Assembly (NCBI GenBank): GCA_965249625.1
Contig: OZ252246.1
Span: 2,706,236-2,770,235, forward strand
Origin: Nitrospinales bacterium
Lineage (GTDB): Bacteria > Nitrospinota > Nitrospinia > Nitrospinales > VA-1
Direction: 5' to 3'
Length of the DNA stretch: 64,000 bases
Part shown: positions 8,438 through 40,046 of the stretch, one piece after another
How the letters are laid out: each line of letters opens with the position of its first letter
Numbering within the stretch: position 1 is the first letter of the stretch
Program-made: the position numbers and the translations under genes
The notes under the pieces: model-generated
Told to the model about the DNA's origin: nothing
What the model saw: the letters and a program-made list of their open reading frames with translations, nothing else
The model's database searches: none

Positions 8438-8446
8438 CATAAAATA

Positions 8447-10139: not shown

Positions 10140-10343
10140 CCGCTCGCCGCAGGGGCAGAGTAGGGCTCATTTTCTGATGTTGATTTTCAGTAAAATATTC
10201 AAAAGGTTGAATTTAAAAATCGCAGGTGCTTTATTTTTTAATTATGTAAATTCAAAATTACCAAGGGTATAATTGTATTACACCTTAGCTTTAAGTATAT
10301 ATATGAGGTGTTGATAAATTTTTCTCTGTAAGAGCATTAAAAA

Positions 10344-11601: not shown

Positions 11602-11602
11602 T

Positions 11603-11881: not shown

Positions 11882-12171
11882 GGGTTCGATAAATATTGCT
11901 TCCAATTTAATTTTTTAGAATTGTTGGGGTCGGGACCAACGTCAGCAGCACTTTATTAGCGGACGTTTTCTCGACTTTTTTTGTTAGAATACCCCTTGGC
12001 AGGGGAGGCTGTGATATTCCCATCATTACCTTTATGCCCCAACGGGGTAAATTGAGTAAGCGTGTGAAACAATGCCGAGACAACTCTTTGCCAGCAAACA
12101 AGAGCTATTACCCCTCCAGGGAACGAAGGCTAAGGAGAGATATCACATGCACATTGGCCCTGCGCCTGGCA

Positions 12172-12261
<90 letters not shown>

Positions 12262-12426
12262 CCATTCGCCATGGAGGCAAATTGATATAGCCTGTTTGGC
12301 TGCGAGGGCAATTGGGCACGAGATAAAGATATTGCATTTTATTAGCGGAGATTCTCCGCCACTGCTCGCCGCAGGGGCAGGTTAAGCCGAAAGAACTTTG
12401 CTAAAGTGGTGCGTCACTTAGAAAAA

Positions 12427-12560
12427 GAGAGATCCTTCTTCGCCAAAGGCTCATCAGGATGACAAAATGGCGTTTCTTGTCATTCTGAACGTGTGATATT
12501 CCCAACACTAGCTTCATGCCCCGGAGGGGTATTAGTGAAGAATCTCGTTTTTAAGGTCTC
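12427..12560. repeat. degenerate MITE copy (both termini eroded)
   Basis: Contains CAGGATGACAAAATGGCGTTTCTTGTCATTCTGAAC, a GCCCCGGAGGGG hairpin and AGTGAAGAATCTCG...AAGGTCTC, but lacks the CTTTGCATAA terminal blocks. Confidence 0.55.
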
Positions 12561-12593
12561 ATATTTTTATTGGTTAAAATATTATTGGCAGTT

Positions 12594-12690
12594 TTGTTGG
12601 GCCTCACGCAACGTGGCTTTGTGAAACCCGTCAGATCCGGAAGGAAGCAGCGGTAGCAAAATCCCATATGTGCTGTGAGTTCCCCAACAA
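12594..12690 (+). ncRNA. ffs: signal recognition particle RNA (4.5S type)
   Basis: Terminal helix TTGTTGGG.../...CCCCAACAA encloses the conserved domain IV sequence GTCAGATCCGGAAGGAAGCAGC. It sits directly upstream of dnaX, a common arrangement. Confidence 0.85.
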
Positions 12691-12764
12691 TTCTGCCTTT
12701 GAATAATATCCCCGGGCGACCCGCGGTCAGCGGTTTGCCTGCAAATCGTCGGTCTTCTGAAATA

Positions 12765-14366
12765 ATGGAATTCCAGGTTTCAGCCCGAAAATGGCGCCCC
12801 CAGAAATTCAGCGAATTGATTGGGCAGGAGCATATTGTCCGAACCCTTTCCAACGCTATTGAACTGAACCGTGTTTCGCATGCGTTCCTGTTTTCCGGAA
12901 CACGCGGTGTGGGTAAAACCACCACGGCGCGGATTCTTGCGCGGGTGCTCAATTGCGAAAAAGGACCGACTATCGAGCCTTGCGGTACCTGCAGTTTTTG
13001 TGTGGAAATTACCGAAGGCCACTGCATTGATGTTCAGGAAATTGATGGGGCTTCCAATAATGGGGTGGCCGAGGTGCGCGATCTCATTGACAACGTGCAA
13101 TACGCCACGTCCTCTGCCCGTTACAAAGTCTATATTATCGATGAAGTTCATATGCTTTCAAAAAACGCGTTCAACGCATTGTTGAAAACGCTGGAAGAAC
13201 CACCCCCTCGCGTTATTTTCATTTTTGCCACCACCGAACTGATCAAGATTCCGGACACCATCCTTTCGCGTTGCCAATGTTTTGAGTTCAAACCGTTATC
13301 GAATGTCCAGATCACCAAACAACTGGAACTGATTTGCGGGCAGGAAGGAATTCAAATTGATGAAAAAGGGTTGGAAGAAATTTCCAAAGTTGGGGCTGGC
13401 AGTATGCGTGATGCGCAAAGTCTATTGGACCAGGTTATTGCTTACAGCGGCAAAAATATCGATACCGATTCGGTAGAGTCGGTGCTCGGTATTGTTGGGG
13501 ACACCACTCTTGAGCTTTTCGCCGAACGTCTCATAAAACGGGAACCGGCTGAACTGATCGCTCTGGTCCAGGAGGTCGCCAATCAGGGTAAAGACCTGGG
13601 CCTGTTTTGCCGGAGTGTGATGGAATATTTAAGAAACCTGCTGATGGTCAAAGTTTCGCGCAATCCGGAAAGCCTGATCAACGCGCATACCTGCAACATG
13701 GAGGCTTTGAAAAAACAGGCAGAGGGATTCGATGCCGATGAGTTGCAACAAATGTTCACCGTTCTTTCCCGTGCCGAAGCGGAAATGAAACGAAGTTCCC
13801 TGGCGCAGATGGTTTTTGAGATGGCTATTCTGAGGCTGACGGAAACCCGGCCTTTTAAAAATATTGATGACCTCATCCACAAGATCAACCAGGTTGAAGT
13901 TCAGCCAGCCCGACTGGTCACGCCGTCACCGACAGCGCAAAATGATTCGAGCGTAACACCCGCGAAAACCCAACCGGATAACGGTTCTTTCGATTCCTCG
14001 ATCTGGAACAAGATCCGCCAGGAAGTTTCCCGAAAACGACCGGCTTTCGAACATTATCTGGATAAATGCCAGGTTCTCGCGCTGAACGAAAAAGAAATTC
14101 AGTTAATGTTTTCAGATTCCTTCACCCTTGAAATGGTTGGGAGTCCGGAAAATGTTCAGTTCATCAAAGATATGGTCAAATCAGCCAGCGGCCATGAGGT
14201 ACAGGTGATCTTGAAGCAGGGCAAGGTGAAGCCCACTTCATCGGGCCCTTCTTCAAGTGCGCAGGAAAAAAAAAACTTAACTAACGAAAACCAGAGCAGG
14301 CAGAAAACAGAATCGGCAATTATTCAGGACGCTCTGGATATTTTCGGGGGCATTGTGGTGAAATGA
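12765..14366 (+). CDS. dnaX: DNA polymerase III subunit tau/gamma
   Basis: MEFQVSARKWRPQKFSELIGQEHI, Walker A GTRGVGKTT, a CxxC..CxxC zinc module, IDEVHML. The track start at 12675 would overlap the SRP RNA, so ATG 12765 is preferred. Confidence 0.93.
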   Translation: MEFQVSARKWRPQKFSELIGQEHIVRTLSNAIELNRVSHAFLFSGTRGVGKTTTARILARVLNCEKGPTIEPCGTCSFCVEITEGHCIDVQEIDGASNNGVAEVRDLIDNVQYATSSARYKVYIIDEVHMLSKNAFNALLKTLEEPPPRVIFIFATTELIKIPDTILSRCQCFEFKPLSNVQITKQLELICGQEGIQIDEKGLEEISKVGAGSMRDAQSLLDQVIAYSGKNIDTDSVESVLGIVGDTTLELFAERLIKREPAELIALVQEVANQGKDLGLFCRSVMEYLRNLLMVKVSRNPESLINAHTCNMEALKKQAEGFDADELQQMFTVLSRAEAEMKRSSLAQMVFEMAILRLTETRPFKNIDDLIHKINQVEVQPARLVTPSPTAQNDSSVTPAKTQPDNGSFDSSIWNKIRQEVSRKRPAFEHYLDKCQVLALNEKEIQLMFSDSFTLEMVGSPENVQFIKDMVKSASGHEVQVILKQGKVKPTSSGPSSSAQEKKNLTNENQSRQKTESAIIQDALDIFGGIVVK

Positions 14367-14393
14367 AAAATTTCTCGAACAACAGGTGTTTTG

Positions 14394-14717
14394 ATGAGTG
14401 ATGATAAAGGCTGGATCTCGTTATTCAAACAGGCTCAGGACATGCAGTCCAAGCTTGCCGAAATTCAGGAAGGCCTCGCTAAAAAAACGGTGGAAGTGTC
14501 TACCGGTGGCGGTATGGTGAAGGTGGTTGCTAATGGGCTCAACGAAATTATTTCGGTCCATGTTGATGACGAACTGATCAACATGAATGATCGGGAAGTG
14601 CTCGAAGACCTGATCACCGGTGCCATGAACGAAGTTCATAAGAAAGTGAAAGATCTGGCGCAGGGTGAAATGTCCAAATTGACCGGGGGCCTGAAAATTC
14701 CCGGACTTTTCACATAA
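14394..14717 (+). CDS. ybaB: YbaB/EbfC nucleoid-associated protein
   Basis: 107 aa with GGGMVKVVANGLNEIISVHVDDELI...DLITGAMNEV. Canonical dnaX-ybaB-recR order. Confidence 0.9.
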   Translation: MSDDKGWISLFKQAQDMQSKLAEIQEGLAKKTVEVSTGGGMVKVVANGLNEIISVHVDDELINMNDREVLEDLITGAMNEVHKKVKDLAQGEMSKLTGGLKIPGLFT

Positions 14718-14745
14718 TGGGCGCGTTGAATAAACACGGGAATTA

Positions 14746-15369
14746 TTGGGAGCGAACCGTCTCATCGTGAAAAGACCTCCCGCAGTTACAAACCTTATAG
14801 ATGAATTGAAGAGGCTTCCCGGCATTGGCCAGAAAACCGCTGAACGTTTGTCGTTTTTCCTGATGCGCGGAAAAGCCGAGCAGGCCAATAAACTCGCCAC
14901 AGCCATTCAGAATCTTAAGGAAAAGATTATCCTCTGTTCGATTTGCCATGGCATCACCGAGTCTGACCCCTGCGATATTTGTTCAGATACTTCCCGCGAC
15001 CATTCACAGATTTGCGTGGTGGAAGAACCACACGACGTTTATGTGATGGAAAACATGGGTTATTTCAAAGGCGTTTATCATGTGTTGATGGGGGTGATTT
15101 CTCCGCTGGATGGAATTGGCCCCGATGATCTGAACATCGAAGTGTTGAAAGAAAAAGTCAGCAAGCCGGGTATCCGGGAGGTCATCCTGGCTACCAACCC
15201 GGATATGGAAGGTGAATCCACCGCCGTGTATATCTCAAAAGTTTTGAAACCTCACGGTAAAGTTAAGGTCACACGCATTGCCCGGGGCCTGCCGGTGGGT
15301 TCAGATATTGAGTATGCCGACTCCGTGACCCTGTTGAAATCGCTGGAAGGGCGACTGGAAATGAGGTAA
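14746..15369 (+). CDS. recR: recombination protein RecR
   Basis: LIDELKRLPGIGQKTAERL HhH, a Cys4 zinc finger (CSICHG...CDICSD), Toprim ICVVEEPHD. The start is uncertain; an internal GTG giving MKRPPAV is possible. Confidence 0.9.
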   Translation: MGANRLIVKRPPAVTNLIDELKRLPGIGQKTAERLSFFLMRGKAEQANKLATAIQNLKEKIILCSICHGITESDPCDICSDTSRDHSQICVVEEPHDVYVMENMGYFKGVYHVLMGVISPLDGIGPDDLNIEVLKEKVSKPGIREVILATNPDMEGESTAVYISKVLKPHGKVKVTRIARGLPVGSDIEYADSVTLLKSLEGRLEMR

Positions 15370-15578
15370 CCACTCGGCGTGGGGCCAAGTAGCCGTGATA
15401 CCCTCTTCCACAAACTTCATGCCCCGCAGGGGTAAATGGCTTGATTTGGCTGGCAAAGATTTATCTCGGCTTGACTTGCCCGCGCGGCTGGCAGCCACGC
15501 CAAGTGGGGAAATCCACTTGACAATATGATACAAAACAATTAGATTTCGGTGTTTTAGTCCTATTCCAAAAAAACCAT

Positions 15579-15653
15579 TCCGGTGTGGCGCAATGGTAGC
15601 GCAATCGGCTGTTAACCGATGTGTTAGAGGTTCGAATCCTCTCACCGGAGCCA
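15579..15653 (+). tRNA. tRNA-Asn (anticodon GUU), CCA encoded
   Basis: Acceptor TCCGGTG/CACCGGA, anticodon stem-loop CGGCTGTTAACCG, T-arm AGAGGTTCGAATCCTCT. Confidence 0.9.
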
Positions 15654-15673: not shown

Positions 15674-15801
15674 GAGAGCTTTGCGTAAGTCGAAAAAAAC
15701 AGAAAGGCGAGATTCTTCACTGCGTTCAGAATGACAATACAAGGCTATTTGTCATTCTGAGGAACAAGGTGACGAAGAATCCGGGGTTATGCAAAGGTCT
15801 C
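15674..15801. mobile_element. MITE, 128-bp basic form with perfect 9-bp TSD
   Basis: TIRs GAGAGCTTTGCGTAA / TTATGCAAAGGTCTC. Central hairpin CAGAATGACAA-N11-TTGTCATTCTG. Identical CTTTTTCAG at 15665-15673 and 15802-15810. Confidence 0.85.
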
Positions 15802-19117: not shown

Positions 19118-19164
19118 CAAAGCCACCTTTCTCTCGACAGGGAGAAGTTCAATCCCCCCCCCCG

Positions 19165-19294
19165 AGAGAGCTTTGCATAACCCGAGATCCTTCGTCGTTT
19201 TCGGCTCCTCAAGGATGACAAACCGGCGTTTCTTGTCATTCTGAACATAGTGAAGAATCTCGTCTTTACCCTTTTTCGACTTACGCAAAGGTCT
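19165..19294. mobile_element. MITE copy with 9-bp TSD CCCCCCCGA
   Basis: GAGAGCTTTGCATAA...TTACGCAAAGGTCTC with a central GGATGACAA...TTGTCATTC hairpin. Flanks 19156-19164 and 19295-19303 are identical. Confidence 0.8.
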
Positions 19295-19305
19295 CCCCCC
19301 CCGAG

Positions 19306-19635
19306 AGAGACCTTTGCATAACCCCGAGATTACCCTTGCGGGGCACGAGGGCTAAGGAAGAGGACATCACAGGCTCCTCAAGGATGACAAACTGGCGTTT
19401 CTTGTCATTCTGAATACTTCGGCTTCGCTCAGCACAGGCTCCGCTTTGTCATTCTGAACGCAGTGAAGAATCTCGGGGTTATGCAAGGCGAGATGCTTCG
19501 ACAGGCTCCGTGAAGACGTGATATTTTTCCTTAACCTTCGTGCCCCGCAGGGGTATGTGATATCCTCTTCATTAAACTTCATGCCCCGAAGGGGTAATCT
19601 CGCTTTTCTGTTTTTTTCGACTTACGCAAAGCTCT
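19306..19635. mobile_element. MITE copy (330-bp composite variant) with 9-bp TSD CCCCCGAGA
   Basis: GAGACCTTTGCATAA...TTACGCAAAGCTCTC. Carries extra hairpin submodules and an internal partial duplicate of the core. Flanks 19297-19305 and 19636-19644 are identical. Confidence 0.8.
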
Positions 19636-19818
19636 CCCCCCGAGAAGGGGGGTCAGGGGGGCTAAACATTCACTCAGCTTTGGACTTCATCCCCATCCGA
19701 TTGCAACCCCGTTATAAACCGATACCACAATAGTTATAATAAAAATTTTATATAGTTATAAATACTAAACATACCAGATATAGGGTAGTTTGATTAAAAT
19801 CTCCGCCGATGATCCCGG

Positions 19819-19880: not shown

Positions 19881-20912
19881 ATGGTCAAGAATCAGGCAGA
19901 AGAAATTTGCGCCTATCTTTTAGCGAAAATACCGGTGCACCCGAAAAATATCGTCGCCAAAGCCTCGAACGCTTTTTCGTGCAGTCGCACCACCGTCCAC
20001 CGGCACCTGAACCGGCTGCTCCGCGATGGAGCGATCATTAAAACCGGCACCACGAGGCAGGTGCAATACTTTTTAAAGTCGGAAAAAAACAAACAAATTC
20101 TTGTTCCTCTGGAACCGGGAGTTGAGGAGGATAAAGTCTGGAAAGAAAACTTTTTGCAGGACTTTGAAACACTCCCCAAAAACGTGCGGAATATTTGTGA
20201 ATACGGTTTTCTGGAAATGCTCAACAATGCCATCGACCATTCAGAGGGAACAGGAGTAGTGATAAAAACAGAGTGGGCATCTGACTCAATTATGCTAGCT
20301 ATTCGCGATGATGGTGTGGGCATTTTTAGAAAGATCAAGAACGCGCTGAGCTTGGAAGATGAGCGCGAAAGTGCCCTGCATCTCTCAAAGGGAAAGTTCA
20401 CCACCGACCCGGAAAACCATACCGGAGAGGGAATATTTTTTTCTTCCCGGGCCTTCGACACTTTTCACATAACATCAAGAGGAATGGGTTATGCAAGAAA
20501 TAATTGGGATGAAGACTGGTTTGTGGAAACGACGAAGGATGAGAATGTACCCGGAACAGGTTTGATAATGAAAATCGCTCTGGGCTCAAAAAGAAAAATG
20601 CAGGAAGTTTATGCAGAATACTCGAACGAAGGTTCTGATGGAATTCATAGCTTTGACAAGACCCATATTGCTGTGAGTCTGAGCAAATTGGGTGATGAAC
20701 GCTATGTCTCGCGCTCCCAGGCGCGGCGCATCTGTTTGGGGCTGGAAAAATTCAAACATGTGGTTTTAGATTTTAGAGATATATCTACTGTCGGCCAGGG
20801 TTTTGTCGATGAGGTGTTTCGTGTGTTTCGGTCCAAATATCCGAGAATAAAGATTGAATACACCAATACTAATGGCGATGTCCGGTTCATGATTAAACAT
20901 AGCTTGCCCTAA
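19881..20912 (+). CDS. wHTH + GHKL ATPase + C-terminal STAS-like (DUF4325-type) protein
   Basis: N-terminal SRTTVHRHLNRLLRDGAI (wHTH). GHKL N-box EMLNNAIDHS, G1 RDDGVGIF, G2 HTGEGIFF. The C-terminal VVLDFRDISTVGQGFVDEVF is typical of DUF4325/STAS-like domains. Confidence 0.7.
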   Translation: MVKNQAEEICAYLLAKIPVHPKNIVAKASNAFSCSRTTVHRHLNRLLRDGAIIKTGTTRQVQYFLKSEKNKQILVPLEPGVEEDKVWKENFLQDFETLPKNVRNICEYGFLEMLNNAIDHSEGTGVVIKTEWASDSIMLAIRDDGVGIFRKIKNALSLEDERESALHLSKGKFTTDPENHTGEGIFFSSRAFDTFHITSRGMGYARNNWDEDWFVETTKDENVPGTGLIMKIALGSKRKMQEVYAEYSNEGSDGIHSFDKTHIAVSLSKLGDERYVSRSQARRICLGLEKFKHVVLDFRDISTVGQGFVDEVFRVFRSKYPRIKIEYTNTNGDVRFMIKHSLP

Positions 20913-21005: not shown

Positions 21006-23576
21006 TCATATAACTATGTAGTTTCTATCTTTCCATAGTTGTTCAATCTTATGCTCATCTTTTAACCGCAATAAGAAATTATGTTTCCATTCATCGTGTT
21101 TTATTAAATGGCTTCCTTTAGGTTCAATGAAAACCTGATAATGAAACGAGGGTTTATTATCTCCAATTAAAAACAATACAAAATCGGGTTCAAATGCACG
21201 TCCATCATCAAAATTAAATAGTTTGAAGTGTCGTTCATTGCGTAGTAAATAAACCTCTGAATATTTTTTATTCAATTGATCTACTATCTTGTCAATATAC
21301 TTGACCAGATGTTTTTCCTCAGAGGTTCCGTAGTTCTCGTTAAATACAAACCAATCCTTGCTGGACAAATCCATATTTAAATCCTGATTGGTTGTTTTGC
21401 TTTGCGCAATACCATATTCCTGATCGCTCTCGCCATCGTTGACAATATTGAGTGTTTTGTCGGTAAAAGTTTGTTTGACCATATAAGGCTTGAATTCCCT
21501 CGTGCCTTTATGCTCAACATTTTCAACCTGTAATTGACGACTCAATTTATCCAGCAAACGGATCACAATATCCAATTTACTCTCCTGGGTTAGATGGTTC
21601 ACCACATCATTAGAACCTTCAACCTCTACTTTGATCCTCCCCAGATAGTCATCAGAGTCAACGAACTCGGACAGGCTGTGCAAATGTGGAAACAGGCGTT
21701 TTAAATTTGAAAACTGATATTCAGGGAATTGGGCCAGTGCTTTTTTGATGACGCAGGAACCAAATGATTTTATAGAATAATCTTTTTGTGTTTTGTTGGC
21801 TTGTCGCTTTCCTTCAAACTCAAACAGGGTTGACGATTGTGAGTAGCCCGATGGCAATGAGATTTTATGTGTCGTTTGAATAAATGAAGCGGTAATACCG
21901 ATCACATCTTCACGCGCATATTTCACCCGCTCATTCTTGAAAACAAAACCCGCCTTATAAAATGGTTTCTCTTTGAAATCTGGTTTTAGTGTTAATTGCA
22001 GCTCACGACTGGTTTTTGCTTTAATACCGATTTCTTCTAAAGCTGTGTGTAACTCTTGAATATATCTGGGATTATAAGCACTGTGATAATATAGCTCCTC
22101 GCACAATTTTAAGTCATGTTCCTTTTGATTATTGAAAATATCATATTTACGCTGATGAAGCGGTTGATCATCTTCTAACCTGAAAGGGCAATATCTCGCG
22201 CCGCGCCCGATTAACTGCGCCTCTGACAAGGTTGTTTTACCCGGTTTGCCAGATTTTGCGTCGCGCGTATCGTACAGGCGTACAATATCAAACAGATTAA
22301 GTACATCCCAGCCTTCGTTCAGCTTATCGACTGCAAAAATAGCACGGTATTCATTATCCTTGTCTTCCAATGTGTTGACCGCAATCTGTTTCCGCACTGA
22401 TTCATCTTTGGAATTGACAGAGATACACTTGTTTTCAGCGAATTCTTCCTGTAATTCTAAAGCCAGATTGTCCAGTGTAATTTGGTTCTCTTCAAAATAG
22501 CGAAACACTCCAGCTAAAACAGCATCCAGATCAGGATTGCTTGCGATTTTTGCCAGATCGTTTCCTTTCAAGCCCTTTATCCGGGCAATAAATTCATCAT
22601 AGAAGGCGTTAGATTCTGCAATTGTTTTTGACTTGAGCAAAATGACAGGTTTTATCAGCCAACCGTGCTTTTCAAATATTTTCCGCCTGAACTGGCTCAA
22701 TAAAATGGCCTGTAATGCTCGTTCAAACGACCGGACTTCGGATTGTAAAACCTTTACCTCTTTAGAATACCCATCCACTCGGAACACCTTTAGCGGATAG
22801 TCAAAAATTATCTTATCCCGGTATTTTTCAATAATCTGTTCATGGGTTAAGTCCATAGTAGCGGTAAATTCCAGCAGGATATTTTGATTGTTGGCCTTGA
22901 ATATTTTTTCAACCGTGGATTCCCAGCTTGTCAAATCAAACATTTCAGATTGATTCAAGTCTCTGGCTCTTTTGGTTTCTGCATTGATGTGATGCGCCTC
23001 ATCCGAAATCAAGACGATTTTCCCGCTTTCAAAGTCATCAAAAGTAATACTGTTTTCTCGCGGCGTATGTAGGCGGGTATGTAAGCCTTGAATGGTTGAA
23101 AACACGATATTTATATCATCAGGGTTGGCCGCTTGGAAATTATCGACCTCCTTGATGCGTATTGACTGATTATTGATTTGTACCGATTCACTAAACAGAT
23201 ATTTTGAAGCAATCGTATTCAGGAAATTATCACGGGTTTTATTGATGATATTGGTACTGTTTACAAAAAACAGGAAATTGCGATAACCCTGATCATATAG
23301 ATAGAGCATCAAACCCGCCATGATCAGCGTTTTACCGCTACCCGTTGCCATGTGAAATAAGGTTTGTGTCGGTACACTCTTCGGGCGAGCGGGATAACTC
23401 TCCATGTAATACTTGAAACGACCAAAGGCTTCAAGCTGGTAGGGCCGCAATTCAAAGTCAGGGTTGAGGTTGCTGGCGATGCAATCGGGAATATTTTGTT
23501 TATAATAATCATAGCCGCCTAAAAATTCTGCGCCTGTGGTTAGTTTTTCGTGGAGCATTTTTTGTTCAGCCATCAA
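21006..23576 (-). CDS. res: Type III restriction enzyme Res subunit (SF2 helicase + C-terminal PD-(D/E)xK nuclease)
   Basis: Motif I MATGSGKT, motif II SDEAHH, later helicase motifs QLIGRGAR. C-terminal EPDFVLFL...VFIEPKG nuclease motif. The first ATG is at 23573 (TTG at 23576). Confidence 0.88.
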   Translation of the reverse strand: MMAEQKMLHEKLTTGAEFLGGYDYYKQNIPDCIASNLNPDFELRPYQLEAFGRFKYYMESYPARPKSVPTQTLFHMATGSGKTLIMAGLMLYLYDQGYRNFLFFVNSTNIINKTRDNFLNTIASKYLFSESVQINNQSIRIKEVDNFQAANPDDINIVFSTIQGLHTRLHTPRENSITFDDFESGKIVLISDEAHHINAETKRARDLNQSEMFDLTSWESTVEKIFKANNQNILLEFTATMDLTHEQIIEKYRDKIIFDYPLKVFRVDGYSKEVKVLQSEVRSFERALQAILLSQFRRKIFEKHGWLIKPVILLKSKTIAESNAFYDEFIARIKGLKGNDLAKIASNPDLDAVLAGVFRYFEENQITLDNLALELQEEFAENKCISVNSKDESVRKQIAVNTLEDKDNEYRAIFAVDKLNEGWDVLNLFDIVRLYDTRDAKSGKPGKTTLSEAQLIGRGARYCPFRLEDDQPLHQRKYDIFNNQKEHDLKLCEELYYHSAYNPRYIQELHTALEEIGIKAKTSRELQLTLKPDFKEKPFYKAGFVFKNERVKYAREDVIGITASFIQTTHKISLPSGYSQSSTLFEFEGKRQANKTQKDYSIKSFGSCVIKKALAQFPEYQFSNLKRLFPHLHSLSEFVDSDDYLGRIKVEVEGSNDVVNHLTQESKLDIVIRLLDKLSRQLQVENVEHKGTREFKPYMVKQTFTDKTLNIVNDGESDQEYGIAQSKTTNQDLNMDLSSKDWFVFNENYGTSEEKHLVKYIDKIVDQLNKKYSEVYLLRNERHFKLFNFDDGRAFEPDFVLFLIGDNKPSFHYQVFIEPKGSHLIKHDEWKHNFLLRLKDEHKIEQLWKDRNYIVI

Positions 23577-24055
23577 TCACCCCCACAAATCTTTTCTAAT
23601 AATGTCCAGCGCGTTTTGCCGCACACTTATATACTGAGATAGAGAAATGCATGAAACCTTATACTCTCTACAGCAACCAACCAGATTCTTCTGCTTATTC
23701 GGATTTTCCTGAGTTACCACAGTTAGCTCTCTTGATTGTGCAAGCGCAATAATCACTGGGTCAGCATTAACTCTGCTTTGTTTTTTCACTAACTTTGGGC
23801 ATCTATTGGCAATATCCGCAATATTGCCTTGTAGCCCAGGTTGCGTAGGAATGAATAAATTGGATTGTTTCTTGACCCACTCGGTCAAGGAGTCATCCAT
23901 TTTTTTTCGAGTTCTTGTTTTACTTCCACTGGAGCCTGGATAAACTGGTTCTCAGTATCTTTTTCGATGAGCTTGAAAACATCTTCAAATGTTGCGGGAG
24001 CATAAATTTCATGCCACCAGGCAATAAACGCGCTGGTATCAAATAGATAGCTCAT
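23577..24055 (-). pseudogene. DUF4411-like PIN-domain protein split by a frameshift in an A8 (T8 on +) run
   Basis: ATG 24055 encodes MSYLFDTSAFIAWWHEIYAP...ELEKK, then terminates after 4 more codons. The tracked ORF 23577-23900 (MDDSLTEWVKK...VNADPVIIALA...) continues in another frame. One extra A at 23900-23907 restores a ~159-aa protein. Confidence 0.6.
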
Positions 24056-25242
24056 GACACCCATCTATGCAGTGGAAATTGCAGCCTTTTGGACAACTTA
24101 CCAAGGTGTTTGAGTTTCATCCCCAATACATCATAAATCTCGGTGGCATTAACACTCCCCTGCTCATAAGCGGCTAATACGGTTTGAGTGAGCAAATTTC
24201 CGCAACGGTCAAGTACCTGCTTATCGGGAGGAGCAGCTCTAACGAAATCGGACCTGTTTTCCAGCCCTTTCAGATAGTGCCGCTTGTATTCATCAAGCAA
24301 CGTATCCAGCGTTGCCTGGCCGATAAGGCCCAGCGCTTTCAATTTCACCGCAATTGCGCTATGGCTTATTTTAAGATTAGAGGCCAGGGCTTGAATAGTT
24401 TCTTCAGGATTGCCGCTATCATTCCATTGAGTTTGAAGATAACCGTCATCAATAAGCACTCCGGAAGCAACGCGATTACACATCGTTTCTACAGGGTCAT
24501 AGTCCGCAGCTTCCTGTCTAAAATTTATTTGGGATACGCCGCTATTATCATCCAGTAACAAATGCGCTAATTCATGCACCAGCGTAAAAATGCGTCGTGC
24601 GGGGCTGTCTGCGGGATTGAGAAGAATTAAGGGGGAGTAGTTATCATAAAGCACCAAACCACTGTATTCATTACGGTCAATTTTGTGTGCCGCGTGGGTT
24701 CCGTTAGCTGAAACAATAACGCGTTTGGCTTCAATCTTTTCTGTCCAATAAGACAGGGCTTGTTTATCGTTTTCCATCTTCGAAATTTTTTGCCTGTCAA
24801 TCTTCAGCCATTGCACGACCCAATCCGCAATATGTTTTACATTTTGTTGACCAGCGAATGAGCCTAACCAATTCAAGGGGTTCGCATTTTCATTTTGCAG
24901 GTATTCCCGCATCCATGATTGGCGTTCACGCGCATCTCGTATGGCAGAGCAAAGCGGGTGGCTGTAAGGCTCTCGGGTTTCGGGGCGGCGAAAATCTTTA
25001 GGTTTCTCCTGTTGCCATTCTTCGGGAATGACTTTCAGGTAAAGAACGGGTAAGGAAACTTTATATTTATCCGCCAGCTTCCTGGCATTGGATAAACCTA
25101 TGCCTTCTTGACCGGATTCCCAGGCGGTTATCTTCTCAACGGATTTATTCAGTTTTTTTGCGGCCTGTTCGATGGACAAGCCGATATCTTCCCGCGCCCA
25201 ACGCAAGGTAGCAGGATGAACAGGGACTGTTTTTATTGCCAT
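24052..25242 (-). CDS. XRE-family HTH fused to ImmA/IrrE-type zinc metallopeptidase (COG2856)
   Basis: N-terminal LSIEQAAKKLNKSVEKITAWESGQ HTH. HEXXH motif in FTLVHELAHLLLDD. ATGA overlap with the downstream DUF4411-like gene. Confidence 0.8.
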   Translation of the reverse strand: MAIKTVPVHPATLRWAREDIGLSIEQAAKKLNKSVEKITAWESGQEGIGLSNARKLADKYKVSLPVLYLKVIPEEWQQEKPKDFRRPETREPYSHPLCSAIRDARERQSWMREYLQNENANPLNWLGSFAGQQNVKHIADWVVQWLKIDRQKISKMENDKQALSYWTEKIEAKRVIVSANGTHAAHKIDRNEYSGLVLYDNYSPLILLNPADSPARRIFTLVHELAHLLLDDNSGVSQINFRQEAADYDPVETMCNRVASGVLIDDGYLQTQWNDSGNPEETIQALASNLKISHSAIAVKLKALGLIGQATLDTLLDEYKRHYLKGLENRSDFVRAAPPDKQVLDRCGNLLTQTVLAAYEQGSVNATEIYDVLGMKLKHLGKLSKRLQFPLHRWVS

Positions 25243-25245
25243 GAC

Positions 25246-27012
25246 CTAACCCCCATAAAACTGCTTATTCAGTTTTTTATCCTCATCCGATATTTGATAA
25301 TCTGCATCGTCAATTTCAGAATAATTGACATAAAGCTGGTTTTTGTCCAGCACGGCAATCAGGAATTGTTTTTGTTCTGCTATTGATAATCCGGCAAACG
25401 CATGGATATTTTTATTGATGGTTTCTGGTTTTATTTTGTGGCTGATAAAGTCGGTATTTTCCATTTCATGCCAGAGGGCAGTCAAGTCTTGGGTGGTCCC
25501 GGCTTGTTCGATTTTATCAATGATGTTGGCATTGTGTTGCGTAAGTTCGCAGTAAGTAAATGAGCCACCGCCTTGCCAGTTTATGCTTTTAGAGATACCT
25601 TTGTTATCCTTCCCTTTCACAACATTATGTAACCTTGGTATTAGCGTTTGAATCCCTCCCTCTAATTGCTCAACACCGATAAATGTTCTGCCTAACTTTA
25701 AACTGGTTACAGCAGTCGTTCCACTACCAAGAAAGAAGTCAAGTACTATATCGCCCGGTTCAGATGCGGCTTCAATGATTATTTTCAACAGACTTTCCGG
25801 CTTGGCTGTATCATAGCTTGCTTCCTTTGAGTTTTTAATTAGAGTATTCCCCCAAACATCTCCTAAAACAACATATTTAGCATCTGGTGCCGTTATGAGT
25901 TTTACAACTTTCTCTCTGTTAAGGTCGATTCTGTCAGAAACATATGTTTTTAGACCTGTTCCAGCTTCTAACTCCCATTCAGCGGGAGTTCTACCCATTC
26001 TACCTCTTGTGTAAAACCACCCCTTCGAATCTTTTTCAATTCTGTTAATAGTGGATGTTTTATATGGTCCTAATGGAGGAACCCAATACCTCGAAACCTT
26101 GTCTTTAGCATAAATAAATATATTCTGATACTCAGTAGGCATTGAAGAACTTTTTGAGTGCGACCTTGAACTCCCGCCCTCTCTCCCTTTATGCCAAATA
26201 ATTTCGTTAACAAAATTTGATCTTCCAAAAATCTCATCCAGCATAACTTTCATGTAGTGAGACTCGTTGTTGTCAACATGTATAAAAATATTTCCATCAA
26301 TACTTAAAATGTTTCTAGCAGTTAGCAGACGACTTCGCATAAAAGTCAACCAGGTAGAATGGTTAAAACTATCATTGTAAGTAAAGCTATCTCGTTCTGT
26401 GTTGAATGGCGGGTCAATATAAATCAGTTTGACCTTACCCGCATACTGCTTTTTCAAACAATGCAAAGCCAGCAGATTGTTGCCCTTGATAATCAAATTA
26501 TCATCAATGCCAATGCTTTCTACTTTATGCTCGCTTTCTTTATCGTATCTCTTGAAACTGGTTAATACCTTCGGGTCAAGCAAGCGGTCAATTTCATCCG
26601 AAGCGAGGGTTTCATTCCAGAATATTTCTTTGCGTTTCTGCTCCTCTTTAGTCTGCCCGCCTTCCAGCACACAATCTTTATACGGCCATGCTAAAACCAC
26701 CTCTCTGCTTTCCGTTAAATATTCCCCGTTCGCCGTTAAACCGATTTTGTTTTTGAATGCGGTGTAGCTGTCGGGTAAAAATTGTTTGTTGCTGACAAAA
26801 CTTTGAAACGCCACCTTATCAAATACCAGTACACCAGCTACATCCTTGAAAAACTGCTTTTTGACTGCCCCACTCCCCAACAACAAGGCAAGCAAACCTT
26901 CATCCATTGCAAGTGCCAGCTCAACAATTTTATTTTTCACCAACTCACCATCAACGACCAGACGCTCATCGCCTTGTAGTGTGGCTTTTAATTCTTCTAA
27001 TAAATTTTGCAT
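25246..27012 (-). CDS. mod: Type III R-M Mod subunit (N6-adenine DNA methyltransferase, beta class)
   Basis: Motif IV LIYIDPPFNT precedes motif I DFFLGSGTTAVTS. The N-terminal region (TAFKNKIGL) is typical of Mod proteins. Confidence 0.88.
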   Translation of the reverse strand: MQNLLEELKATLQGDERLVVDGELVKNKIVELALAMDEGLLALLLGSGAVKKQFFKDVAGVLVFDKVAFQSFVSNKQFLPDSYTAFKNKIGLTANGEYLTESREVVLAWPYKDCVLEGGQTKEEQKRKEIFWNETLASDEIDRLLDPKVLTSFKRYDKESEHKVESIGIDDNLIIKGNNLLALHCLKKQYAGKVKLIYIDPPFNTERDSFTYNDSFNHSTWLTFMRSRLLTARNILSIDGNIFIHVDNNESHYMKVMLDEIFGRSNFVNEIIWHKGREGGSSRSHSKSSSMPTEYQNIFIYAKDKVSRYWVPPLGPYKTSTINRIEKDSKGWFYTRGRMGRTPAEWELEAGTGLKTYVSDRIDLNREKVVKLITAPDAKYVVLGDVWGNTLIKNSKEASYDTAKPESLLKIIIEAASEPGDIVLDFFLGSGTTAVTSLKLGRTFIGVEQLEGGIQTLIPRLHNVVKGKDNKGISKSINWQGGGSFTYCELTQHNANIIDKIEQAGTTQDLTALWHEMENTDFISHKIKPETINKNIHAFAGLSIAEQKQFLIAVLDKNQLYVNYSEIDDADYQISDEDKKLNKQFYGG

Positions 27013-27417
27013 ATCTGTTTGTAGTTCTCTTTATGAATTTTATCCGCTGGATTGATACTTTCAAACGCATAGCACTTGAATTCAGAGAGTGATGCAACCG
27101 TCCGCTGGAGTAATTTATCAGGTTATTTTTTATTATATGCGATAATCTTCGGCCTAAGCGGTTATGGAATAGTTGGCTAACATTTTAGACCAAGGTAATT
27201 TTTTTCACAATAAAAGCCTCTACTTTTTCCTATCTACACGTAAAACTAAGAGAATAGAGCAAGTTTTTGTATTCCTTCTATTTTTACGGTTGGTTAAATA
27301 TCGCGTTTCACCCGTATTTCTTTTAACTTAAAATATCGCCGACTGTTCAAGATGCTTGCGGTTTAACACCCCATTGGTGTAAGCTGAGGGACTCTATAAC
27401 AAAAACGGTAATGAGTC

Positions 27418-28728
27418 ATGATTCCCGAATTATTGTCACCTGCTGGCAGCCCTGAGAAATTAAAATATGCTTTGGCGTATGGTGCGGATGCGGTCTATGC
27501 GGGCATTCCCAAGTTTTCCTTGCGGGCCAGAGAGAATCCTTTCAAAAACGATTTGCTTGAAGAAGCCATTGCCTACACCCACGATAAGGGCAAGAAGATT
27601 TATGTTACGGCCAATATTCTTCCGCCCAACCGGAAAATTGAATCCTTTAAAAAATCCCTGGCTCAACACGCTGCATTGGGGCCTGATGCATTCATCATGG
27701 CTGATCCGGGGATGATTCAGTTTGCTCTAAAGGAGTTTCCCCAGATTCCGGTTCATCTTTCGGTGCAAACCAATACTATGAATTGGTCCTCGGTGGAATT
27801 TTGGTACAACCTTGGAGTTAAGCGGGTCATTTTATCGAGAGAGCTTTCCCTGGAAGAGATTCAGGAGATCCATGACCGGGTTCCAGATATGGAACTGGAG
27901 GCTTTCGTGCACGGGTCAATTTGTATTGCTTATTCTGGCCGGTGCCTGTTATCCAATTATTTCAATCACCGCGATGCCAATCAGGGCACGTGCACCAACA
28001 GTTGCCGATGGGAATTTAATGTTAAGGAGGAAGTAGAAAAAGAAACCGAACAATATCAGCCGCTTAAGGGGCAGTATGCCATTGAGGAAACTTCGCGAAA
28101 AGGCGAAATGATGCCTGTCGATGAAGACGAGCACGGTACTTATATCATGAACTCGAAGGACTTGAGGGCGGTGGAATTTTTAAAACCGCTTCATGAAGCC
28201 GGTGTCATGTCATTTAAAATAGAGGGCCGATCGAAATCCATTTATTATTTGTCCATGGTCACCCGGGCTTACCGTAAGGCCATTAAAGATCTGGCAGAAG
28301 GACGTTCATTCGATCCCGAATTACTTGGAGAAATTGATAAGACGGCGAACCGGGGTTTCACATCCGCGTTTTTAATATCCGCCTCCAATCGGGACACCGA
28401 GCGGTTTGATTCACCGCAGGAGAAAGATCAGGCTCAGATTTTTGGTGGGCAGGTTGTGAATGAGCGGCCGGGTTGGATGGAGGTAGAAGTTAAAAACCGA
28501 ATCGAGCTGGGGGATGAGGTGGAATATATTTCCCCCAGCGGGCAATTCAAATTTTCCATTGATGCTATGGAAACAAGTACCGGGGAAAAAGCAACTGTCG
28601 CACACGGAGGCAATGGAACGATCTGGATTGGAATTGATCGGCAGGCAGAACCGTTCGCACTATTAAGCCTGTTGCAGAGAGAGCTTTGCATAACCCCGGA
28701 TTCTTCGTCACCTTGTTCCTCAGAATGA
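27418..28728 (+). CDS. U32-family peptidase-like protein, with the C-terminal 17 aa encoded by an inserted MITE
   Basis: MIPELLSPAGSPEKLKYALAYGADAVYAG, a U32 signature region and a Cys cluster. From codon AGA at 28678 the frame runs into the MITE (RELCITPDSSSPCSSE*). Confidence 0.85.
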   Translation: MIPELLSPAGSPEKLKYALAYGADAVYAGIPKFSLRARENPFKNDLLEEAIAYTHDKGKKIYVTANILPPNRKIESFKKSLAQHAALGPDAFIMADPGMIQFALKEFPQIPVHLSVQTNTMNWSSVEFWYNLGVKRVILSRELSLEEIQEIHDRVPDMELEAFVHGSICIAYSGRCLLSNYFNHRDANQGTCTNSCRWEFNVKEEVEKETEQYQPLKGQYAIEETSRKGEMMPVDEDEHGTYIMNSKDLRAVEFLKPLHEAGVMSFKIEGRSKSIYYLSMVTRAYRKAIKDLAEGRSFDPELLGEIDKTANRGFTSAFLISASNRDTERFDSPQEKDQAQIFGGQVVNERPGWMEVEVKNRIELGDEVEYISPSGQFKFSIDAMETSTGEKATVAHGGNGTIWIGIDRQAEPFALLSLLQRELCITPDSSSPCSSE

Positions 28729-28869
28729 CAAATAGCCTTGCATTGTCATTCTGAATGCTTCGGCTTCGCTCAGCACAGGCTCCGTGAAGACGTGATATTT
28801 TTCCTTAACCTTCGTGCCCCGAAGGGGTAATCTCGCTTTTCTGTTTTTTTCGACTTACGCAAAGGTCTC
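28679..28869. mobile_element. MITE copy (191 bp) inside the 3' end of the U32 gene, TSD TGTTGCAGA
   Basis: GAGAGCTTTGCATAA...TTACGCAAAGGTCTC. Identical TGTTGCAGA at 28670-28678 and 28870-28878. Confidence 0.85.
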
Positions 28870-28923
28870 TGTTGCAGAAGGCCAAAATGGCTGAAACCGT
28901 TTAAAGTCAACTGGGAATTTTAT

Positions 28924-30344: not shown

Positions 30345-30889
30345 CTACGAGGCGTAGGGCCGACTAGCAAGGGCTCGTTGAGCCGTCTACGTCTCCCGCT
30401 CGGCACTCGCTCCCGTGAGAAGGAACTGGGCAAAGGCTCATTCAGCCGAGACAAGTTTTTGTTTGCCGAGGAAAGTTATTGCGCACTGGCTCCACGCCTG
30501 ATGGGAGTAGCCGAACCCAATCAAAAATAATCGAAGATTGCCCGCAAGTGTGGCTTCGTCCTGGGTTCCGTCCATGTACCAGCCTGATTCCCAAGCCAGG
30601 ACTTTCTAATAAAGATAAAACTCTGTTTGCAAATTCCCCTGCTTTATGAGGGCAACATTTTATGACGGGAATAGGCCGGAATTCTATCACCCATTTGTAT
30701 TTCCGCAAAAAAACATCTTTCCTATACAAGTATTCCAGTAAGAACCTCTTATTAAACAGACCTCCCCCACCTTTAAATTACAATCTTGAAAAGAACTGTG
30801 ATTTGTCCGAGAATGTCAGATTAACGTTTGTTCGCGTTAAACTTTCCTGTTCCTTGAATAATGCCAAAACTAATCGGGTTTTAAAAAAA

Positions 30890-32467
30890 ATGGGTTTATT
30901 TACCGCCAGACCTTCTTCTGCCCAATTCCTTGTGGAAGATCCCTGTTTTCTCGATGTCGGTGAACACCTGGACTGGCAAGGTCAATTCGGAAACGGCCAG
31001 CCGATAAAACTGGAAATCGGTTTTGGAATGGGAGATTTCCTGATTGAAATGGCGACCCGGGAACCCCATAGCAATTTTGTCGGGATAGATTTTTCCCAAG
31101 ATGGTATCCGCAAATTATTGGTCCGGATTAAAGACCTTCACATAAAGAATATTCGTGTTGTCTATGGCGATGTCCGGGAAAAAGTCCCTCTCATTTTCCA
31201 TGATGGCGAATTGGATACAGTCTATATCAATTTCCCCGACCCCTGGCCGAGAAAAAGGCATTTTAAACGACGGCTGATCAAACCAGCATGGGTCACGCTG
31301 ATCGCCAGGAAGCTGACTCTGGAAGGTCACGTTTATCTGGCCACCGACAGCGAACCCTATGCCCATGAAATTCTTAAATATTTTAATGCTGAGCCCTTGT
31401 TGCAGAATAAAAGTCAGGAGCCTGGTTTTCTTTTTCGCCGTGACCAACTGCCCAAAACGAAATACGAAAAAAGTTTTATTTACGCTGGGGATAAAATCCA
31501 TTACCTGGAATATTCCCGACAAGCGGCAAAGGGACAACCCGGGGGAATTGTTTCTTCTGTACAAGAAGAAACCAATGAGCTTGCAGAGGAAAAAACCTTG
31601 AGCAATGACGAAATGATTAAAAAATTTGAACGTGCTGAAGCGAAAGCTAAAGATGCCTGTGACCTTCAACAGCTTGGCGGCCATTTAGCCTGTGCAGGAG
31701 ACAGGCAGTGGGCCGAAAAAGTTTATCAAAAAGCCGAAGCCATGGCCGAAGACAGTCTGGATTTGAATTGGCTGGCCTACAGTGTTTCTGAAACACTGGG
31801 TGATAAAGACTGGGCGAAAAAATTATACGATAAAGCCGAAGCCATGGCCGAAAGCAGTCTGGACTTGAACTGGCTGGCCTACAGTGTTTCAGAAACACTG
31901 GGCGATAAAAACCGGGCAAGAAAACTCTATGAGAAAGCTGAGAACAACCCCCAAAACATTCGTGAACTCTGTGATCTCGCTGACAGCATTTCCGAAACAT
32001 TGGGCGATCAGGAATGGCAAATAAAAGTTTATAAGAAAGCCGAAGCTATGGCGAAAGAGCATTCCGACTTCTACGAACTTGCCGACAGCGTCTGTGCAAA
32101 GCTTGGCGACAAAAAATGGGCCAGAGAACTCTATGAGAAAGCCGAAGACACGGCCCAAGACAGCAGCGACCTCCATAGTCTGGTCGAGTGCCTTGCAGAA
32201 AAGCTGGGCGATCAGGAATGGGCTAAAAAAGTTTATTTAAAGGCCGAAAGCATGGCCCAGGACAGCACTGATTTCTGCTGTCTGGCCGAGAGCCTGTTGC
32301 AAAATTTGAGTGATGAGGAATGGGCCAGGAAGTTATATAAAAAAGCTGAAGACCAAGCTGAGGAAAATTTTGAATACCGCTGGCTGGCCGACAGCCTGAG
32401 TGAATTACTGGGTGATAAAGAATGGGCTGAACGGGTATGTCAGAAAGCGAAAAACCTTTTTAGCTGA
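30890..32467 (+). CDS. trmB: tRNA (guanine-N7)-methyltransferase fused to eight 34-residue TPR-like repeats
   Basis: From ATG 30890: LEIGFGMGDFLIEMA, VGIDFS, INFPDPWPRKRHFKRRL (TrmB motifs). This is followed by a ~270-aa repeat domain. The track start at 30662 adds 76 non-homologous residues. Confidence 0.85.
   Translation: MGLFTARPSSAQFLVEDPCFLDVGEHLDWQGQFGNGQPIKLEIGFGMGDFLIEMATREPHSNFVGIDFSQDGIRKLLVRIKDLHIKNIRVVYGDVREKVPLIFHDGELDTVYINFPDPWPRKRHFKRRLIKPAWVTLIARKLTLEGHVYLATDSEPYAHEILKYFNAEPLLQNKSQEPGFLFRRDQLPKTKYEKSFIYAGDKIHYLEYSRQAAKGQPGGIVSSVQEETNELAEEKTLSNDEMIKKFERAEAKAKDACDLQQLGGHLACAGDRQWAEKVYQKAEAMAEDSLDLNWLAYSVSETLGDKDWAKKLYDKAEAMAESSLDLNWLAYSVSETLGDKNRARKLYEKAENNPQNIRELCDLADSISETLGDQEWQIKVYKKAEAMAKEHSDFYELADSVCAKLGDKKWARELYEKAEDTAQDSSDLHSLVECLAEKLGDQEWAKKVYLKAESMAQDSTDFCCLAESLLQNLSDEEWARKLYKKAEDQAEENFEYRWLADSLSELLGDKEWAERVCQKAKNLFS
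31628..32443 (+). repeat. 8 x 102-bp in-frame tandem repeats within the trmB 3' half
   Basis: Units of 34 aa with consensus KAEamAedS.Dl..LA.SvsE.LGDkeWAkKlY. Units 2 and 3 (31730-31831, 31832-31933) are nearly identical at the DNA level. Confidence 0.85.
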
Positions 32468-33647: not shown

Positions 33648-34190
33648 ATGACTCTAGATAATTTCTTTTTAGCAACAATTAAAGACGTTACAGCCCGAAT
33701 AAGGTCAGACGACGAATATAAATTAATAAGAATGGCAGGGTTGCTAAGACACTTAGTTCTAGACGGCCCAAAAAGCTTAATTCATCAAGTCAATAAAGAG
33801 AGGAAAATAAAACTTCAGTTTACGGTTAGACAAATTGATGCCAAGAATAGAAAAGGTGAGAGTATAAATTATTGGGGCTATAGGGGCTTTAAAACTTATA
33901 AGGCATATCCTAAGATTGTTTCATTGAATGGTTTTTTAAATCACCCCTTTGGCTTTGACATAATCCATAAAAGAAACTTAATGATTAAAGATTACATTAA
34001 ACATTTTGCCCATGTTCAAGGTGGGGTTCATTCTGGCAAAGCTAAACAAGCTCAAGATATATGCTTATCGTTTTATATTCAGATGTCAAAAAATGAGTCA
34101 ATACCATTGGACCTCAAAACATTACCGTTGATAGCAAAAACAATTCTTACAGGTCTTAAGCCATTAAAATTGGCCGTTCAAAAAAAATAA
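33648..34190 (+). CDS. hypothetical protein (180 aa)
   Basis: ATG ORF in AT-rich DNA. No recognisable domain. Confidence 0.45.
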   Translation: MTLDNFFLATIKDVTARIRSDDEYKLIRMAGLLRHLVLDGPKSLIHQVNKERKIKLQFTVRQIDAKNRKGESINYWGYRGFKTYKAYPKIVSLNGFLNHPFGFDIIHKRNLMIKDYIKHFAHVQGGVHSGKAKQAQDICLSFYIQMSKNESIPLDLKTLPLIAKTILTGLKPLKLAVQKK

Positions 34191-40003: not shown

Positions 40004-40046
40004 CCTGGGGATTCTTCACTGCGTTCAGAATGACAAGAAACGCCAG

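Follow-up and report, generated by a model that had tools for sequence, protein, structure and literature searches.

Why do two additional genes separate the modification gene (mod) from the restriction gene (res) in a Type III restriction-modification (RM) operon, and do they take part in its function or merely reside within it? This question is raised by a locus in a 64,000-nucleotide stretch of DNA from a Nitrospinales bacterium (GenBank assembly GCA_965249625.1, contig OZ252246.1, positions 2,706,236 to 2,770,235; hereafter, the window), in which a gene for an XRE-type helix-turn-helix (HTH) protein with an M78/IrrE (ImmA-like) peptidase domain and a gene of the DUF4411 family, together referred to here as the cassette, lie between mod and res. 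On balance, we lean towards interpreting this locus as a horizontally acquired composite defence operon, built on an HI_1054-like Type III RM backbone whose mod/res junction is a slot that holds a toxin-antitoxin (TA) or abortive-infection pair of the VapBC52 family.

Organization of the operon and its Type III backbone

As described in the first-pass annotation of this DNA, four tightly packed, co-directional genes occupy the minus strand, all of them at the positions that had been proposed (Table 1), with one exception. The end of res was retained, while the TTG at 23576 that the open reading frame (ORF) lister had taken as its start is probably not the real start, and the ATG at 23573 is preferred. 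The TAG stop of mod is followed after 3 nt by the ATG of the antitoxin gene, the antitoxin stop and toxin start overlap in ATGA, and the TGA stop of the toxin gene is followed by TTG and then by the ATG of res. Compared with shuffled sequence, neither terminators nor promoters above chance level were found inside the operon. Given the lack of such an internal terminator, co-transcription of the four genes is plausible. The best promoter-like site is located just upstream of mod and we treat it as a lead to a candidate operon promoter, not as evidence for one, as promoter-like matches in the region were not above those in the shuffles.

Table 1. Features of the operon and their positions in the window.
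Feature	Position	Strand	Description
mod	25246..27012	-	Type III DNA methyltransferase, 588 aa, apparently intact
VapB52-like antitoxin gene	24052..25242	-	XRE HTH and M78/IrrE peptidase, 396 aa
DUF4411 toxin, N-terminal fragment	23885..24055	-	holds D6 and E48; ends at a premature TGA resulting from the frameshift
A8 run in toxin gene	23900..23907	-	1-nt deletion compared with intact relatives
DUF4411 toxin, C-terminal fragment	23577..23900	-	ORF of 107 aa; holds D99 and E117
RNA stem-loop	23853..23899	-	two-tier; starts directly 3' of the A8 run
res	21006..23573	-	Type III restriction subunit, HI_1054-like family, 855 aa
Candidate sigma-70-like promoter match	27037..27064	-	TTGAAA-16-TAAAAT, 10/12; 25 nt upstream of the mod ATG

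The two outer genes carry the hallmarks of a Type III system. Mod matches the Pfam models TypeIII_RM_meth (9.6e-24) and N6_N4_Mtase (5e-45) as well as the PADLOC model MTase_III (6e-170), and its translation contains the catalytic motifs IYIDPPFN and FFLGSGTT, that is, both the DPPF and the FxGxG signature. Res matches Pfam ResIII (6e-30) and, over residues 5-849, PADLOC REase_III (1.9e-134), and carries the helicase motifs MATGSGKT and DEAH together with a PD-(D/E)xK nuclease motif (EPDF...IEPKG). Both subunits of a Type III RM system are therefore present, even though mod does not directly adjoin res. The backbone is, as judged from these profiles and motifs, a Type III RM system with predicted restriction and methylation activity. 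It resembles canonical members of this type (EcoP1I, EcoP15I, and HI_1054-56 of Haemophilus influenzae) in its Mod domains, in the superfamily 2 (SF2) helicase and PD-(D/E)xK nuclease of Res, and in the order of mod and then res, while the canonical systems, unlike the one in the window, have no two extra genes in between. Compared with its relatives, Mod is less conserved (approximately 59% amino acid identity) than Res (80-86%), and its central target-recognition part (approximately 25600-26190) shows no conservation at the DNA level.

The embedded genes encode a predicted VapBC52-family toxin-antitoxin pair

The assignment of the two inner genes to ImmA and to DUF4411/PIN, which had been made from the letters of the sequence, was borne out by Pfam profile searches. 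The antitoxin matched HTH_3 (3e-12) and Peptidase_M78 (1.3e-14). The toxin gene had been reported as split at a run of eight A residues (A8 run), and this proved correct, given that one added A yields a single protein of 159 aa, which matched DUF4411 (6.7e-27). The antitoxin comprises an N-terminal XRE HTH domain, a DFRR sequence (residues 83-86) corresponding to an 'FR' self-cleavage motif, the M78/IrrE peptidase, and a C-terminal helical domain. Across the family, the residues of the zinc site (H223-E224-x-x-H227 plus E252; that is, H223, E224, H227, and E252) are invariant, as is D83 of the FR motif, with F84 and R85 being conserved in at least 90% of members. The four invariant acidic residues of the toxin (D6, E48, D99, and E117) are likewise all encoded, even though the frameshift divides them between two ORFs.

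Both proteins match the chains of a structurally characterized complex, namely PDB 9VZY, the VapBC52 complex of Mycobacterium tuberculosis (Rv2515c/Rv2514c; also 9VZZ) (Singh et al., NAR 2026, PMC13273310). The antitoxin family profile aligned with chain A almost from end to end (E = 9.5e-104; profile positions 9-391 against chain residues 2-388), and the window antitoxin alone still reached 9.7e-23; for the toxin and chain D, the respective values were 1.8e-40 for the family profile and 7.3e-14 for the window protein alone. In VapBC52, one antitoxin clamps a toxin dimer, single-stranded DNA (ssDNA) switches on the peptidase, which then cleaves the antitoxin it is part of at the 'FR' motif that follows the HTH domain, and the freed VapC52 PIN toxin cuts tRNAs in the anticodon or variable loop (PMC13273310). 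The first-pass suggestion of a protease-gated TA or abortive-infection module fits this homology well, as self-cleavage of the ssDNA-triggered antitoxin is exactly what frees the tRNase in VapBC52. By these matches, the middle pair is a predicted TA pair of the VapBC52 family. The two loci share the two-gene architecture and gene order, the near full-length antitoxin match, and a DUF4411 toxin with four acidic residues. They differ in that pairwise identity is low and that VapBC52 is a stand-alone chromosomal locus, whereas the window pair lies between a Type III mod and res and has a frameshifted toxin. The pairing of an HTH-peptidase with DUF4411 as such has been predicted to be a three-component TA system since 2009 and 2017.

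Two other known systems are related to the pair. RosmerTA, a phage-defence TA system (RmrT/RmrA; Millman et al. 2022; Ernits et al. 2023), likewise combines a zinc-peptidase (ImmA) antitoxin, often with an N-terminal HTH, with a variable toxin, and 14 PADLOC RmrA models matched the window antitoxin, albeit weakly (best 2.3e-13, approximately 48 bits). CapH/CapP of the cyclic oligonucleotide-based antiphage signalling systems (CBASS; Lau et al. 2022) also relies on an ssDNA-activated IrrE/M78 peptidase that cuts an HTH partner; the PADLOC capP model matched the antitoxin at 1.5e-13 and the antitoxin profile also matched PDB 7T5T. However, CapP cuts a separate repressor to induce transcription, whereas the window antitoxin, like VapB52, has HTH and peptidase on one chain, with toxin release as the predicted output.

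The mod/res junction behaves as a slot for exchangeable cargo

The order mod-antitoxin-toxin-res recurs in five further loci (L001, L082, L083, L165, and L167), in which Res is 80-86% and the antitoxin 54-85% identical to the window proteins, while flanking genes and hosts differ. The operons of L165 and L167 (the latter at 796x coverage) are fully intact. In L082 and L083, two low-coverage contigs (3-4x), either mod or res is broken, which probably reflects assembly errors, since the locus is unbroken in the deeply covered L167. The cassette also lies between mod and res in two very distant Type III systems (L005 and L009), which have an unrelated Res and antitoxins that are 37% and 30% identical to that of the window and with start and stop codons that overlap throughout; in another locus (L034), the antitoxin-toxin pair is located just upstream of mod-res. 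The cassette was moreover found in five operons of Type I (L008, L062, L086, L104, and L151), where it separates the hsdM/hsdS genes from hsdR, bringing the cases of synteny to 8 Type III and 5 Type I loci. In the antitoxin tree, these RM-embedded copies are scattered among stand-alone ones.

At the DNA level, the unit common to the window and its relatives begins at 27020, 8 nt ahead of the mod ATG, ends at 21012, 6 nt short of the window's res stop, and is broken only at the target-recognition region of Mod. The GC content is 39-40% in the RM genes, 46% in the antitoxin gene, and 45-54% in the flanks. This exactly delimited shared unit and the contrast in GC content fit a horizontally acquired, mosaic unit.

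To look at the junction independently of the cassette, we sampled loci by similarity of Res. Among the closest relatives, L165 (Res 84% identical) and L167 (82%) carry a VapBC52-like cassette between mod and res, while L166, a Methylomarinum metagenome-assembled genome (Res 83%), has an empty site with mod and res 2 nt apart. The latter bears out the earlier proposal that the cassette had been inserted into a Type III operon. Other relatives have different genes at the same position, namely HEC-06 (GmrSD-like) plus PD-T4-4 A/B in L168 (Res 80%), PD-T4-4 A/B in L169 (70%), SoFic in L170-172 (65%), and a gene of 145 aa on a Chryseobacterium plasmid (54%); on plasmids of Thioclava, Streptococcus, and E. 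coli (36-45%), the site is empty. The arrangement had at first been taken as unusual. Within this Res family it is not, given that 6 of the 10 Res-based samples have cargo between mod and res, concentrated in the closer relatives and with alternative cargo in L168-L173. The Res of L168 is 95% identical to that of L001, a locus from the same sample that carries the cassette. Whatever occupies the slot, the C-terminus of Mod (..QFYGG) and the N-terminus of Res (M..MLHEKLTTGAEFLGG) are conserved. Except for the 145-aa gene, all identifiable slot cargo belongs to validated defence families, and none of the HEC-06, PD-T4-4, and SoFic cargo genes is annotated with an HTH. Given this variable cargo, or an empty site, between conserved ends of mod and res, the junction acts like a slot into which different defence genes can be fitted.

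Two side observations concern these junctions. In L170 (2292-10711; also in L171 and L172, all from a marine metagenome), a C-protein-like HTH gene, the Type III mod, SoFic, and res are followed, directly after res, by a gene with a Piwi domain (prokaryotic Argonaute). In the window, the 3' ends of mod (25246-25270, ..CAGTTTTATGGGGGTTAG) and of the toxin gene (23577-23600, ..GATTTGTGGGGGTGA) are alike, so that similar short sequences bracket the cassette; this could be a recombination footprint or merely reflect two G-rich ribosome-binding sites.

Stand-alone cassettes and remnants of lost RM genes

We also examined 160 antitoxin loci at greater distance, half of them (80) in species-representative genomes and the other 80 in metagenomes. 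The metagenomic loci came from a scan of JGI metagenomes, which returned no close relatives (all at most 31% identical) and was used solely as a second sample for the frequency of RM linkage. Pairing of the antitoxin with DUF4411 is near-universal, with a toxin match in 150 of 164 loci. L177, which had appeared to lack the toxin according to the public gene calls, was rejected as a toxin-less locus, since its toxin gene is intact and the gene caller had chosen the opposite strand.

Some stand-alone cassettes are accompanied by scars of RM genes. L084 (8559-8700 and 6975-7000) retains approximately 25 codons of the res 5' end (..ILHEKLTSLGELSEVGYYQKK, followed by a stop) and the last codons of mod (AAACAGTTTTAC..), and L002 (7975-8003) has likewise kept the mod scar. 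These scars indicate that the cassettes of L084 and L002 descend from RM-embedded ancestors that lost their RM genes. They became visible only by direct DNA alignment and translation, while tblastn searches for mod or res remnants beside stand-alone cassettes returned none.

Apparent damage to the toxin gene and the res 3' end in the window

At the site of the frameshift, relatives read CTTGAAGAAAAAGTGGATGA and the window reads CTCGAAAAAAAATGGATGA, which is one base shorter, and it is this deletion that creates the A8 run. Read in the restored frame, the gene has no further interruption up to its normal stop, and its product is approximately 76% identical to intact relatives. As this frame is open and conserved apart from the deletion, the lesion must either have arisen recently or be an error. 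The public record calls the C-terminal toxin fragment as a gene and hence carries the same frameshift. Lesions in the toxin gene occur elsewhere as well: the toxin gene of L001 (9424-9577) is interrupted by an insertion of approximately 150 nt with G/C-run palindromes (..CCCCCCTTATCAGGGGGGG..CCCCCTGATAAGGGGG..), which looks like a miniature mobile element and an independent knock-out of the same toxin, and the toxin gene of L084 has its own 1-nt deletion at 99x coverage.

The other end of the operon is affected, too. The window Res ends approximately 22 residues short of a C-terminal tail (WGMPFYNETETKPEFEKEF..) that is kept by 5/5 close relatives, and DNA homology to these relatives ceases 6 nt before the window res stop. 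Convergent with res lies a plus-strand gene (19881-20912) for a 343-aa protein that has an HTH-like region at its N-terminus, an ATPase domain of the histidine-kinase type, and a STAS-like DUF4325 domain at its C-terminus (3e-15), and the arrival of this gene may have clipped the 3' end of res. In the window, both 'poison' genes (toxin and res) are therefore hit and both 'antidote' genes (mod and antitoxin) are intact, a pattern that would correspond to the decay of selfish modules. Given the 1-nt deletion in the toxin gene and the loss of the Res tail, the locus may be decaying, and the embedded abortive-infection layer is probably inactive in this genome, as far as its coding capacity indicates.

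This conclusion would not hold if the A8 run were a homopolymer error of the assembly and the true sequence A9, in which case the toxin would be intact and the operon a functional two-layer system. We regard such an error as possible, though not as the expected outcome. Only one base is missing, from a homopolymer of 8 bases, the restored frame keeps its length, its similarity to intact relatives, and 4/4 catalytic residues, and the source is a single metagenome-derived contig of 2.86 Mb, possibly assembled from long reads; in addition, two further A8 runs in the window (10474 and 34180) would lengthen ORFs upon a one-base change. Yet at least 10 other A/T runs of 8-10 bases leave the reading frame of the long conserved window ORFs that contain them intact, and the relatives have GAAGAAAAAG at the site, so that the simplest history is a lost G and not a miscounted A9. 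The independent toxin lesions in L001 and L084 and the truncation of Res at the same locus also argue for a genuine defect. The two further runs, at 10474-10481 and 34180-34187, lie in low-GC, island-like segments, and a 1-base change lengthens the respective frames from 47 to 248 aa and from 185 to 266 aa; they could represent further frameshifted genes or homopolymer errors.

Does the pair form a second defence layer?

By analogy with the M. tuberculosis homologue, the antitoxin of an intact operon, with its HTH, IrrE/M78 peptidase, and helical C-terminal domain, would clamp a dimer of the DUF4411 PIN toxin until ssDNA activates the peptidase. The peptidase would then sever the antitoxin itself at the conserved FR motif, which follows the HTH, and the released toxin would cut tRNAs and thereby halt translation. 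Type III restriction would thus constitute the first layer and the embedded pair a second one, acting while restriction proceeds or once it has been bypassed. Plausible triggers would be ssDNA from the processing of restricted DNA or from phage replication. Owing to its position between mod and res, the pair is probably transcribed and inherited with them. The sequences show the gene identities, the homology to VapBC52, the recurring synteny, the alternative cargo, the empty site, and the lesions, whereas co-transcription, toxin activity, ssDNA sensing and the trigger, synergy with restriction, and the loss of function in the window are all properties that we infer.

The two layers could be connected more intimately. 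In such a scheme, ssDNA generated from unmethylated invading DNA by the Type III enzyme and host exonucleases, or by restriction of host DNA, would trigger antitoxin self-cleavage and release of the tRNase. The mod/res junction would be a dedicated plug-in site, at which recombination in the conserved 3' end of mod and 5' end of res replaces one second-line effector (VapBC52-like, PD-T4-4, HEC-06, SoFic) with another. We put this forward tentatively, as a speculative extension of the composite-operon interpretation; if it were true, restriction would double as a sensor for an abortive-infection effector.

Several observations weigh against the composite defence operon. First, the cargo that shares the slot is unrelated, and the junction may hence merely tolerate insertions without functional coupling. 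Second, most cassette homologues are stand-alone; only about 8 were RM-linked in the two 80-locus samples, so that no obligate link to RM exists. Third, antitoxins of the window clade have a Ser (..NSGVSQ..) at the position of the VapB52 'cysteine switch' C229, where distant homologues keep G-[IL]-C-D. As this Ser replaces the zinc-binding Cys of VapB52/CapP, activation of the antitoxin may differ from that described for VapBC52. Fourth, none of the PADLOC RmrT models matched the repaired toxin, for which the sole match was HEC-01A (0.0049), and current tools would therefore not call the locus RosmerTA. Finally, the toxin is broken both in the window and in L001.

Some of these observations would be accounted for if the pair were a selfish hitch-hiker, that is, an addiction module in a permissive junction, which stabilizes itself and incidentally the RM operon, without being a second line of defence and without any link to restriction. 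The prevalence of stand-alone homologues fits such a module, particularly because their contexts are unrelated (126 Pfam families among the neighbours), as does the ability of the L084 cassette to outlive its RM system, of which res and mod remnants persist. That the slot accepts unrelated cargo points in the same direction. What speaks against this plausible but, in our view, less likely explanation is the nature of that cargo, every identifiable piece of which comes from an experimentally validated defence family (HEC-06, PD-T4-4, SoFic, and the VapBC52/RosmerTA type). Moreover, the cassette entered RM operons of two types on several occasions, each time with modification genes on one side, the restriction gene on the other, and start codons that overlap stop codons, and overexpression of VapC52 shields Mycobacterium smegmatis from phage D29 (PMC13273310).

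Possible regulatory roles of the A8 run and of the antitoxin

Instead of a defect or an error, the A8 run could be a means of regulated leakiness, namely a phase-variable switch or a site of -1 ribosomal frameshifting or transcriptional slippage that permits a small, tunable output of full-length toxin. In the mRNA, the run reads A_AAA_AAA in the zero frame, which is an in-frame -1 slippery heptamer, and either a -1 slip or an A9 allele yields exactly the full-length toxin. The stem-loop directly after the run has a minimum free energy of -17.4 kcal/mol (z = -2.9), and 2 of 200 shuffles fold as well. However, the stem-loop is specific to the window and its pairing is missing in the relatives, none of which conserves the A8 run either, and the stem stems from synonymous differences and may have arisen by chance. 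We therefore deem this explanation improbable.

In 7 loci, we looked for an operator of the antitoxin HTH, but the 160 nt that precede the antitoxin gene contained no conserved palindrome. The first-pass annotation had proposed a role of the cassette as a control switch for Res. A mechanism of this kind, in which the XRE HTH would time or gate res like an RM C-protein until the peptidase lifts this control, is very improbable: even though the antitoxin profile matches C.BclI (1.1e-4) and C.Csp231I (2.5e-3), the N-terminal domain of VapB52 superposes on C.Csp231I at 0.96 A (PMC13273310), and the antitoxin gene lies upstream of res in the same orientation, the 3 nt between toxin stop and res start are too few to hold an operator, relatives manage without the antitoxin when their slot is empty or holds cargo that lacks an HTH annotation, mod of L170 is preceded by a small C-protein-like gene of its own, and the antitoxin is nearly always paired with DUF4411 and usually located far from any RM system.

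Embedding of defence genes in Type III systems

The components of the composite defence operon are already known, namely Type III RM, the VapBC52/RosmerTA-type pair, and the nesting of defence genes within defence systems. Such 'embedding' has been published for Type I RM, BREX, DISARM, and Hma. The locus in the window resembles the embedded defence systems described under the term 'guilt-by-embedding' (Payne et al. 2024, preprint), in which accessory defence genes are nested co-directionally in a multi-gene defence operon. The features used in that work were also found here, that is, nesting on the same strand, non-embedded homologues, alternative cargo, and an empty site (L166), and HEC-06, one of the embedded systems of Payne et al. 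(2024), occupies the mod/res slot in L168. PIN TA systems coupled to Type I RM have been noted before, and PrrC offers a parallel in that it, too, cleaves tRNA and is encoded within an RM locus (Type IC EcoprrI). PrrC, however, senses inhibition of its RM partner by direct association, a contact that the window pair is not known to make.

In our literature searches, no account of cargo genes separating mod from res in a Type III system came up. What appears to be new is hence that a whole Type III family uses the exact junction of mod stop and res start as a slot for interchangeable, mostly validated defence cargo, which extends the published cases of embedding to Type III systems. The genes between mod and res would accordingly be a simple new place in which to seek undiscovered defence genes, and the combination of a DNA-cutting system with an ssDNA-triggered tRNase provides a testable hypothesis of synergy. 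The loci also form a natural decay series, which begins with intact operons, continues with operons whose toxin is broken, and ends with lone cassettes next to RM scars; this series is relevant to the gain and loss of selfish 'poison-antidote' modules.

Surroundings of the operon in the window

Repeats at 19.2-19.6 kb and 28.7-28.9 kb, on either side of the operon, were considered as island boundaries and rejected, since the same motifs occur at no fewer than 8 other intergenic sites of the window. Dispersed intergenic repeats were located at 7390-7577, 12477-12489, 15679-15761, 19164-19641, 28677-28874, 40024-40036, 42460-42497, and 47194-47390. Their cores are TTGTCATTCTGAA (16 matches, with 0.2 expected) and TTTTTCGACTTACGCAAAG (6 exact copies), and they often form inverted pairs; several of the repeats border low-GC segments. 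In appearance, they are REP/MITE-type (repetitive extragenic palindrome or miniature inverted-repeat transposable element) sequences of this genome, not module ends. A single hemB cluster with 90% identity suggests that the host is probably a Nitrospinaceae-like bacterium. Elsewhere in the window, five tRNA genes (3 Ser, 1 Arg, and 1 Asn) are interspersed at 7041-15653 with a segment of uncharacterized genes with 36% GC (approximately 8.5-12 kb), a region that looks like a tRNA-associated island. On the plus strand at 30662-32467, a 601-aa protein is encoded whose N-terminal part resembles a region of tRNA (m7G) methyltransferase and is followed by approximately 9 tandem copies of a motif of about 36 aa (..LGDKxWAxKxYxKAEAMAE..).

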